Shown: piece after piece, positions 4,681 through 19,120 of the stretch
Numbering within the stretch: the stretch's first letter is position 1
How the letters are laid out: each line of letters begins with the position of its first letter
The notes under the pieces: model-generated
Told to the model about the DNA's origin: nothing
Seen by the model: the letters and a program-made list of their open reading frames with translations, nothing else
Database searches by the model: none
Origin: Eledone cirrhosa
Lineage: Eukaryota
Assembly (NCBI GenBank): GCA_964016885.1
Contig: OZ024757.1
Coordinates: 31,992,001-32,056,000, forward strand
Direction: 5' to 3'
DNA length: 64,000 nucleotides
Translations under genes and position numbers: made by a program

Positions 4681-4822
4681 GTGAGAAAAACCACAAACCC
4701 TCCATCTCAATTCTACTTTTGAAAAGCGCAAGAACTGCGAAACCGGTAAAGGAACCAAATAAATACATATTTAAAAGAAAAAAGACTCCAATTGTATTTT
4801 CGATTTCATCTTTTTCCCCTAT
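4681..4822 (+). mobile_element. Family C island with minimal HHR (U3-A8 core)
   Basis: TTGAAAA 4719-4725, degenerate stem II, GAAA-CCGG-TA; homologous to 5948-6090 and 40642-40780. Confidence 0.65.
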
Positions 4823-5388: not shown

Positions 5389-5730
5389 GCAAAGAGATAT
5401 TTAATTTGCTGGTAATTCAACAAATTTATTTTTAACAGATTCGAAGCACTCGACAAGTTTCCTGGAGTCTAATATCAATGATATTAATAAATGGAAACTA
5501 TATTTATAAAACCATATTTATTCTATTATATATATTTCAAGGGTACCAAAACACTTTGGTACGCTCTCATCAGATAAAATACAAAATTTGTTTCATAAAT
5601 AGTGACATACCCCAGAAACAAGACCTTATCGGTTCAGGTTCAGTTTGGATAGTGAAAGAAAAAGAGAAAACTTTCAAATCATTAGGATGGATATGTAAAT
5701 GAAGTATAAGCGTAGACTGAAAAAAATCGT
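5389..5730 (-). mobile_element. Family E island (PLE pLTR-like) containing a complete HHR
   Basis: Homologous to 17975-18140, 18526-18672 and 18726-19120; (TA)n flanks. Confidence 0.65.
5520..5580 (-). ncRNA. Type I hammerhead ribozyme
   Basis: Minus strand: attttat-CTGATGA-gagcGTACCAAA gtgt TTTGGTACcctt-GAAA-tatata-TA-atagaat. Stem I pairs with one G-U; stem III is palindromic ATATATAT. Confidence 0.75.
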
Positions 5731-5740
5731 TATATATATA

Positions 5741-5800
<60 letters not shown>

Positions 5801-5803
<3 letters not shown>

Positions 5804-6150
5804 AAGAGATGAAATCGAAAATGCAACTGGAGTCTTATTTTTTTTTAAAATATATATATTTATTTGGTTTCTTTACCGGTTTCGCAGTTCTTCTGCTTTT
5901 CAAAGGGTGAGTTGAGATGGAGGGTTGGTCTCAGAGACCAACCAGATGTGAGAAAAACCACAGACCCTCCATCTCAACTCACCCTTTGAAAAGCAGAAGA
6001 ACTGCGAAACCGGTAAAGGAACCAAATAAATATATATATTTTAAAAAAAAATAAGACTCCAGTTGCATTTTCGATTTCATCTCTTTTTCTTTATACTTTC
6101 ACTCGTGTAGGACACCTCGGTTATTTTTCATTTTGTAAAAAAAACATCAC

Positions 6151-6157
<7 letters not shown>
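5801..6157 (+). mobile_element. Family C fold-back: about 120-bp inverted arms, each with a minimal HHR
   Basis: Arms about 5804-5925 and 5964-6085. Plus-strand HHR: TTGAAAA(5986-92)-GCAG aagaa CTGC-GAAA-CCGG-TA(6014-15). Small hairpin ggttggtctc/gagaccaacc in spacer. Confidence 0.75.
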
Positions 6158-6192
<35 letters not shown>

Positions 6193-11409: not shown

Positions 11410-15821
<4,412 letters not shown>

Positions 15822-17010: not shown

Positions 17011-17043
<33 letters not shown>

Positions 17044-17131
17044 TCTTATATATATATATATATTGTTATATATATATATATATATTCTTATATATATATA
17101 TATATATATATACATTATGAAGAGAGAAGAA

Positions 17132-17841
17132 GTCCCAGTCATTCATTGAGCAACATCGGTGAAGTTGGCACCCTTAACTCACAGTTGGGTGCGGATGCAT
17201 TCATGTATATATGTGTGTGTCCGCATGTATCTGTGTGTTTCTAAATGTATTAATAACTCCCTCTGGTCGAGCAATCTTTGAAGTGTGGGGACAACTGGAA
17301 AGCTTCCATTACTCATACTTCTCGCCTTCTTCACTACCTCTTCTACGGCCTCGATATGAATACCCCCTCCGCCTCCGTGGTATTTTTTTCGTGGTTATAA
17401 GAGGCTTAGCTCTGTTTCTCGACCGTTATATCGCGTGACTATCTCCCCCTCCGCCTTTTGGGATTCTTTCTCACGTCGTGTAGACGCGTTCTTGAGACTA
17501 GTAAAATGAGGTATCCTCTTGATAAGTCGGCAGACCTCGCAAGGACTCTATATCTTTGATATATTGTTTTTGTTTATGCCACGAAACTACGTAGTCGAGG
17601 AATTTAGGAACAGTTTAGGTATGATACATTTTATTACTAATTATATCTAAATGTTTCTTCTCTCTTCATAATGTATTTTTAACTCTGATACTGGTTCAGT
17701 CTGGTTCAAACTGAATTGGTCTGTCCCAGTCATTCATTGAGCAACATCGGTGAAGTTGGCACCCTTAACTCACAGTTGGGTGCGGATGCATTCATGTATA
17801 TATGTGTGTGTCCGCATGTATCTGTGTGTTTCTAAATGTAT
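17132..17841 (+). mobile_element. 591-bp HHR-containing unit with identical 119-bp terminal direct repeats (retrozyme or non-autonomous PLE candidate)
   Basis: 17132-17250 is identical to 17723-17841; HHR at 17514-17601; 17111-17131 is an inverted copy of about 17655-17676. Confidence 0.65.
17514..17601 (+). ncRNA. Type I hammerhead ribozyme, U3-A8 variant, long stem II
   Basis: TCCTC-TTGATAA-gtcggca...tgccac-GAAA-CTACGTAG-TC-GAGGA. Perfect 5-bp stem I, palindromic stem III ACTACGTAGT, GUC site at 17594-17596. Confidence 0.75.
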
Positions 17842-17912
17842 ATATATATATATATATATATATTCTTATATATATATATATATATTCTTATATATATATA
17901 TATATATATATT

Positions 17913-17945
<33 letters not shown>

Positions 17946-17974
17946 TTATATGTATATATATATATATATATATA

Positions 17975-18138
17975 AAGTAGAAGAGATATTTAATTTGTTG
18001 GAAATACAACAAATATAAATGTTTATAACTGATTCAGAGCACTCGACAGTTTCTGGAGTAAATATTCAATGATATTAAATAAATGTAAACTATAAATATG
18101 GTTTTATAAATATAGTTTCCATTTATTTAATATCATTG

Positions 18139-18183
<45 letters not shown>

Positions 18184-18457
18184 AAGAGTCGGGCCACGAA
18201 TGGCTGAGTTCTTGCCGTTTCAATAGCTAGTTCCAGTCTGGAAGTAGCTCTAGATACGGCAAGAGATCAGCCGTTGGTGGCTCGACTCTTTACAATATAA
18301 CCATTCTCTACTACCCCAAGTAGCGAGTAATGGTCTAACCAGTTTCAAAATGAATCCATCCTGATATATATATATATATATCACCCCACTCCCAAGAGCG
18401 TGAAATTAATAAACATTCGTTGTACTGCCTCTCTGTTTTGTTCCTGTTCAAATTTTC

Positions 18458-18517
<60 letters not shown>

Positions 18518-18670: not shown

Positions 18671-18728
<58 letters not shown>

Positions 18729-19120
18729 CAGAGATATTTAATTTGTTGGTAATTCAACAAATTTATTTATAACAGATTCGAAGCACTCTCATTCTCCGTA
18801 ACCCAACGGCTTATTTTAAAAATAATATAATTAAAGCCACAACTCCACTATCCGGGAGCTTCCAACAGTAATGATTGCATTCTTTAAGGGTATGTCAATA
18901 TTTATTTATAAAACTGATCTATATTATATTTTATCTGATGAAAGCACACCATAATTTAACTTGGTGTCTTTGAAATATGTATAATGAAATAAATATGGTT
19001 TTATAAATATAGTTTCCATTTGTTAATATCGTATTTTTACTCCAAATATTTGTTGAGCGCTTTATATCAGTTATAAAAATATTTGCTTGTTGTATCCCAA
19101 CAATTTAAATAGAACTTTTA
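17975..19120. mobile_element. Cluster of family E fragments in both orientations, with HHR at 18927-18991 (+)
   Basis: tattttat-CTGATGA-aagcACACCA...TGGTGTcttt-GAAA-tatgta-TA-atgaaata; about 18608-18672 is inverted relative to 18726-18789 across a (TA)n tract. Confidence 0.65.
18181..18363 (+). mobile_element. Family A-related older fold-back island
   Basis: Imperfect palindrome gtaaagagtcgggccac...gtggctcgactctttac plus tail ctctactaccccaagta. Confidence 0.6.

Follow-up and report, generated by a model that had tools for sequence, protein, structure and literature searches.

Organization of the locus

The window analysed here is a stretch of 64,000 nucleotides from the genome of Eledone cirrhosa. 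Positions 17110-17841 are occupied by a single young copy of a non-LTR retrozyme that is abundant in the genome; its ends are of the type found in Penelope-like elements (PLEs). Its features are as follows:

17028..17109, no strand: left target, (TA)n with TTCT/TGT interruptions
17110..17131, - strand: short inverted arm, 22 nt, a copy of 17655-17676; its 3' end is fixed end A and faces the left (TA)n
17132..17841, + strand: long arm, 710 nt or 1.2 units; its 5' end is a random truncation, and its 3' end, next to the right (TA)n, is fixed end B
17132..17722, + strand: monomer in the phase of this insertion, 591 nt, the period in arrays being 591
17514..17601, + strand: type I hammerhead motif, predicted to cut after C17596; the core is of the U3-A8 kind, stem II is long and stem III is palindromic
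17677..17841, + strand: A-to-B stretch, 165 nt, equivalent of the Penelope 'tail' (as defined in the available text of PMC8557442 and PMC11167929)
17723..17841, + strand: opening part of the second turn, with the same sequence as 17132-17250, stopping at B
17842..17974, no strand: right target, (TA)n with TTCT interruptions

Positions in the unit are given below as circle positions 1-591, corresponding to 17132-17722. An earlier, sequence-only reading of this DNA had described an exact 119-bp terminal redundancy. The repeat was verified: 17132-17250 and 17723-17841 are identical over 119 nt, lie 591 nt apart and cannot be extended on either side. The identity thus stands, while the idea of a designed terminal repeat does not, as the right edge is fixed end B and the left edge a random truncation; the length of 119 bp is arbitrary. 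The inverted interior piece that had been reported as 21 bp at the left end (17110/17111-17131) is indeed the reverse complement of 17655-17675/17676, its last base being ambiguous with the TA run and its length hence 21 or 22 nt. The copy in the window is accordingly two-armed, with 22 nt ending at A and 710 nt ending at B. TA-rich minisatellite flanks it on both sides, as had also been seen, and the same reading's view that no convincing ORF is present agrees with a longest ATG-started frame of 75 codons in the tandem 591-nt unit. A tblastn search of the 64-kb window with twenty PLE proteins gave no match. The insertion is not an autonomous PLE, and a reverse transcriptase (RT)/GIY-YIG ORF is absent from its unit. 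To the right of the retrozyme, fragments at 17960-18140 and about 18700-19030 share sequence with a hammerhead element at 5573.

Hammerhead motif and predicted folding

Every part of the hammerhead described from the sequence could be located. Stem I is formed by 17514-17518 and 17597-17601, the core TTGATAA occupies 17519-17525, stem II runs from 17526 to 17582 including a long distal hairpin, and GAAA (17583-17586) leads into the palindromic stem III (17586-17595). The U3-A8 core variant has been reported for PLE hammerheads (PMC4209133, text available in part). Rfam scans returned low-complexity miRNA matches only and no hammerhead family. The exact 24-nt ribozyme core is found 7,444 times in the 3.0-Gb assembly and the reversed control not once, showing that the motif is not a product of chance.

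As an isolated 106-mer, the hammerhead region folds no better than shuffled sequences (z -0.5). The 591-nt monomer is predicted to be highly self-paired as a circle, with a predicted minimum free energy of -172.6 kcal/mol against -134.3 +/- 7.0 kcal/mol for 40 shuffles (z -5.5). Adopting the active hammerhead fold is predicted to cost 8 kcal/mol in the circle and 4.6 kcal/mol in a long precursor. Self-pairing of the palindromic stem III (predicted at -12.9 kcal/mol) fits the dimer action described for PLE hammerheads in the accessible part of PMC6765202.

The family and its sister in the genome

Genome-wide BLAST, the check proposed for tandem copies, found tandem, variably truncated arrays across the genome. 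These are dispersed, contain 0.2-12 units each, are sited in (TA)n, and have a period of 590-595 with a single hammerhead motif per unit. The event in the window had been called recent, and 49 of the 150 matches listed have the full score of 1281 bits over 710 nt, identical to the window copy; the genome contains 400 occurrences of a motif from the youngest subfamily. Contigs from sequencing runs (four of six runs) showed the unit joined end to start in two, a junction that a tandem array also gives and that is therefore no evidence for a circle.

A total of 120 loci was mapped, namely the window, the 39 best BLAST loci, the 40 first-listed core loci (one chromosome) and 40 loci chosen by motif; 20 further loci were picked by their likeness to one of them, L178. 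These sets are biased to long or young arrays, except for the 40 first-listed core loci. Older insertions are shorter than younger ones (mean 847 versus 1,198 nt; rho 0.33, n=42).

A sister retrozyme family of 590 nt, 80% identical, was identified at loci L201-L229 (e.g. G000:C4:289450408-289453647), with the same ribozyme core and ends at the same places. Positions of the ribozyme core and stems are identical at 44/45, compared with 459/576 overall. The sister breaks 21 of 171 predicted pairs where 41.5 +/- 4.1 would be expected, and the predicted structure is thus kept. L076 contains an old copy next to a young one.

Two fixed ends and a two-armed layout

Read in ribozyme orientation, arms stop at A (circle position 545; 17676) or at B (circle position 119; 17250/17841), 165 nt apart. 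Canonical ends adjoin at least (TA)5 in 165 of 183 cases in the 120 loci. Exact junctions of the A end with TA number 2,517 genome-wide and exact B-end junctions at least 1,164, the B pattern missing older variants. The 5' ends of arms at the 120 mapped loci are scattered. A second peak of 5' truncations lies at about circle 225-285 (17356-17416), near a T-run; it may reflect pausing of the RT, initiation of transcripts or a bias in the sample.

Head-to-head two-armed insertions make up 23 of 42 in the unbiased set, and the joints between arms mostly show an overlap of 0-7 nt. One arm ends at A and the other at B in 62 of 68 two-armed groups in the 120 loci (one segmental duplicate counted twice) and in 16 of 18 in the 20 added loci, or 78 of 86 two-armed insertions in total. 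The remaining six of the 68 comprise five with one end elsewhere and L164, a complex A+A locus whose arms are different haplotypes. Among 28 sister-family loci, 19 A+B pairs and one clear B+B pair (L215) were found. Subfamily alleles are fully common to both arms at 22 of 29 testable loci, whereas in L052 and L164 the haplotype differs between arms. Twin priming of the L1 type on one linear template was considered and rejected, the 5' end of one arm being unrelated to the start of the other.

The template: cut-site crossing and inherited A>G changes

On a cleaved linear monomer, copying could extend for only 80 nt when started at A and for 245 nt when started at B. Of 184 arms, however, 173 run through the cut site, and 91 do so twice. 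In about 318 such crossings, no indel was found at circle 462-467. The 5' ends step up just after the cut (5/38 loci at 452-463 against 33/38 at 464-482, p 0.0005; measured on the first 100 of 356 matches), and four arms stop at circle 466-467, the first bases past it. The step supports cutting in vivo, but it also indicates that some of the templates were probably linear; TA microhomology may contribute to it.

Variants present in all units of an insertion differ in kind from those in single units. On the ribozyme strand, the 93 all-unit variants (54 of them on both arms) include 47 A>G, 19 G>A, 9 T>C and 9 C>T, kin sharing some sites so that there are fewer events than rows; the 147 single-unit variants include 29 C>T, 28 G>A, 21 T>C and 8 A>G. 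Counted as distinct all-unit sites, there are 29 A>G versus 8 T>C (p 8e-7), and at a coverage of at least 3, 23 A>G and no T>C among 35 variants. At 59 young loci, A>G accounts for 1/42 single-unit versus 9/14 all-unit variants. The changes cluster, at 4-7 A>G per insertion. In L178, seven A>G are present in all 7-8 units of both arms, a haplotype found nowhere else among 40 scored candidate loci. Among 38 variants in the 20 added loci, counted with the sites of L178 dropped, A>G accounts for 24 and T>C for 3, some of these rows being subfamily differences. Sites 151, 214, 231, 269 and 411 recur as A>G on two subfamily backgrounds. The sister family is without an A>G excess (3/21 all-unit variants, at low coverage).

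Given that the arms occupy opposite strands of the DNA, the simplest cause of the A>G excess would be a change at the RNA stage, and its strand specificity makes deamination by ADAR the likely source. The A>G sites are paired more often than others in the fold model (0.72 versus 0.58, p 0.03), and a 5' G neighbour is present at 3/29 of them versus 25/103 (p 0.13), a weak ADAR preference. One edited molecule copied many times is the pattern expected from rolling-circle reverse transcription, which has been put forward as a hypothesis for ribozyme circles (PMC4209133 and PMC7229834, in the text available).

Duplication or conversion of units at the DNA level was also seen (L143, L096 and L247), with single variants common to both arms in L031, L056 and L063, and it helped to build the longest array. 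L247 (G000:C3:51374000-51383999) has an arm of 11.8 units with variants that alternate in two-unit steps, read as block duplications at the DNA level; a dimer circle was rejected as the source, since three different alternations occupy separate parts of the arm.

Penelope-like elements and the likely enzyme

PLEs are characterized by a tail confined to one end and by an inverted, truncated arm (PMC8557442). The tail has been described as the segment that separates two internal start sites of the RT, and the PLE protein as cutting and extending both strands, modelled as a dimer (PMC11167929; both sources available in part). The genome holds 10,596 GIY-YIG candidates. Several elements combine RT and GIY-YIG with a linker zinc finger in a single frame, and are called Neptune-type here according to our reading of the zinc finger after the available text of PMC8557442. 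The 50 loci examined include several Neptune-type families and one other. Neptune-type 3' regions contain a U3-A8 hammerhead whose stem III is palindromic. Two TA ends come after it (76/144, 115-125/154-164 and 117/145 nt beyond the cut), with one TA end per arm in L186, L191, L196 and L198.

No partner with sequence similarity or a 165-nt tail was found in 50 of the 150 listed GIY-YIG loci (10,596 candidates). When short-stem hammerheads sharing this stem III were looked for by pattern, five matches in three loci resulted; as partners these were rejected, all three being point mutants of the 591-nt family. L180 (G000:C1:145868000-145877000) and L182 have long open PLE frames (938 and 1096 aa) that match RT and GIY-YIG, and are candidates for recently active Neptune-type families.

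The window itself contains further pieces of this kind. At about 5800-6170 lies a miniature two-armed insertion built solely from Neptune-type PLE ends, with hammerheads at 5903 (- strand) and 5986 (+ strand); its ends in (TA)n, of which the left is the shorter and the right the longer, match both ends of its PLE family. Hammerhead-bearing pLTR fragments of the same family are present at 4719 (+ strand) and 40744 (- strand), while the element at 5573 (- strand) is a different one, with a CUGAUGA-core hammerhead. A short repeated element end occurs twice, at 18380-18460 and 12936-13000, beside TA runs.

Comparison with known elements

The 591-nt family resembles the metazoan non-LTR retrozymes (PMC7229834 and bioRxiv 10.64898/2026.07.22.740005, each available in part) in several respects. 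Its tandem units are non-coding and contain a single type I hammerhead apiece, its copies run into the thousands, its GC content is below 50%, its predicted circle is strongly self-paired, LTR, PBS and PPT are absent, and PLEs are present in the same genome. The unit had been thought unusually long on the sequence-only reading. That impression was not borne out: 591 nt exceeds the 170-400 nt given in the accessible text of PMC7229834 and lies within the 51-972 bp of the bioRxiv study. The two-armed inverted layout, fixed ends and inherited A>G marks are not described for metazoan retrozymes in the available parts of these two sources. Folding predictions leave the hammerhead of the 591-nt circle blocked, whereas most metazoan circles are said in the literature available to leave it free. 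Target-site duplications of retrozymes, when there are any, exceed 4 bp; the (TA)n on either side of the window copy would mask one.

With Neptune-type PLEs (described in the portions available of PMC8557442, PMC11167929 and PMC4209133), the family shares partial tandems, insertion into AT-rich or microsatellite DNA, an inverted arm truncated at its 5' end, two sites of RT initiation, a tail confined to one end, and a U3-A8 hammerhead upstream of the ends. Unlike them, it is without an ORF. Its tail measures 165 nt, compared with 30-40 nt in PLEs in the published accounts available and about 28-68 nt in the Neptune-type families of the same genome, to whose ends its own ends show no sequence similarity. 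Its start sites end in AUGUAU/AUAUAU and could pair with the target, unlike PAc as far as the available description goes. Non-autonomous PLEs of the Chlamys clade such as MRC1 are likewise non-coding passengers with multicopy head-to-tail insertions. These resemble their autonomous partners at the 3' end, whereas no such partner was found for the 591-nt family among the 50 GIY-YIG loci examined, and the clade is without canonical hammerheads, one of which the 591-nt family carries (PMC8557442, as far as its available text describes them).

Alternative explanations

The 119-bp repeat could stem from a single duplication event in host DNA or represent a target-site duplication of large size. Beyond a local look at the repeat nothing favours this and it can be given almost no credence: the 119 nt are part of the unit in all mapped arrays, and with 7,444 core copies the segment is not single-locus host DNA, the outcome that the earlier reading had named as contrary to its own. 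A linear multi-unit read-through transcript could also have been the template, the identical units coming from homogeneous master arrays and from DNA-level duplication or conversion without any circle. PAc inserts from uncleaved RNA in vitro with the hammerhead dispensable (PMC11167929), unequal crossing-over is the route proposed in bioRxiv 10.64898/2026.07.22.740005 (both as far as available), and the duplications in L143, L096 and L247 are of the kind required. It is nevertheless unlikely, as editing unit by unit would not yield one rare A>G set across all turns and both arms (L178, L247 and L261) and a master for the L178 haplotype is absent among the 40 scored candidates. Arrays identical to the reference are, moreover, already multi-unit (L034, 3.3+4.7 units at 100%), and the older insertions are shorter rather than longer.

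If the template were one cleaved linear monomer, repeats could arise without a covalent circle by jumps of the RT from the 5' end to the 3' end. Such RTs may switch templates, and both the rise of 5' ends after the cut and the four arms halted at its first bases accord with this. RT jumps usually leave scars, however, and the roughly 318 crossings are free of indels at 462-467; retrozyme circles have, in addition, been demonstrated in coral, mussel and axolotl (PMC7229834, available text). A jumping RT is therefore judged quite improbable. Rolling-circle copying might, on the other hand, be right with the A>G excess owed to RT misincorporation or to selection for G-U-tolerant changes instead of ADAR. 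The weak neighbour preference, the missing excess in the sister family and the more frequent pairing of A>G sites would suit such a cause, the last being equally a prediction of ADAR. Against it stand the contrast between single-unit and all-unit variants at the 59 young loci, the clusters of 4-7 A>G per insertion, and C>T, which is equally G-U tolerant and is not enriched (9/93). Causes of this sort are considered very improbable.

Proposed mechanism

The reading preferred here, at a probability of roughly 70%, is that of a non-LTR retrozyme with two fixed ends in (TA)n, likely copied by a Neptune-type PLE RT from a single edited RNA monomer that was probably a circle. Both alternatives offered by the sequence-only reading would find a place in it: the arrays are tandem and truncated as in retrozymes, and the ends are of the PLE pLTR/tail type with an inverted arm. 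Arrays would be transcribed and the hammerhead would cut after C17596, in keeping with the conserved motif and the rise of 5' ends past the cut; monomers would then be ligated into a structured 591-nt circle, in which some adenosines would be deaminated, likely by ADAR judging from the strand-specific A>G. A dimer of a PLE RT-GIY-YIG protein, the presumed enzyme, would cut both (TA)n strands, each 3' end priming at its own site, A or B, where the ends are observed. Each RT may round the template for 0.04 to 7 or more turns, and the two cDNAs would join head to head with the 0-7 nt of overlap seen in the layout. In the window copy, arm A would have halted at 22 nt and arm B at 710 nt.

A fuller version of this mechanism is one we consider evenly poised between right and wrong. 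It holds that the PLE RT dimer grips one ADAR-edited circle at two set sites and copies round it from both ends of the break, and that the edits enter the germline in every unit and drive the family from A to G over time.

The retrozyme class is already known, and PLE enzymes have since 2014 been suggested to copy ribozyme-made RNA circles by rolling-circle reverse transcription (PMC4209133 and PMC7229834, text available in part); the value of the 591-nt family is genomic evidence on the mechanism. A literature search, thin on subscription journals, older PLE papers and supplements, found nothing on octopus hammerhead retrozymes, edited retrozyme copies or paired PLE ends, and family lists published in supplements could hold the 591-nt element. 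Edits repeated throughout the units of the two arms point to one RNA molecule as template, and so provide a genomic test of the rolling-circle proposal. The rule of one A and one B end ties the two RT start sites described in vitro (PMC11167929, in the text available) to both strands of one break. Direct assays could address the family's young 591-nt template, both of its start sites and the positions at which edits recur. If the proposed mechanism is true, transient RNA edits would become heritable through retrozyme insertion.
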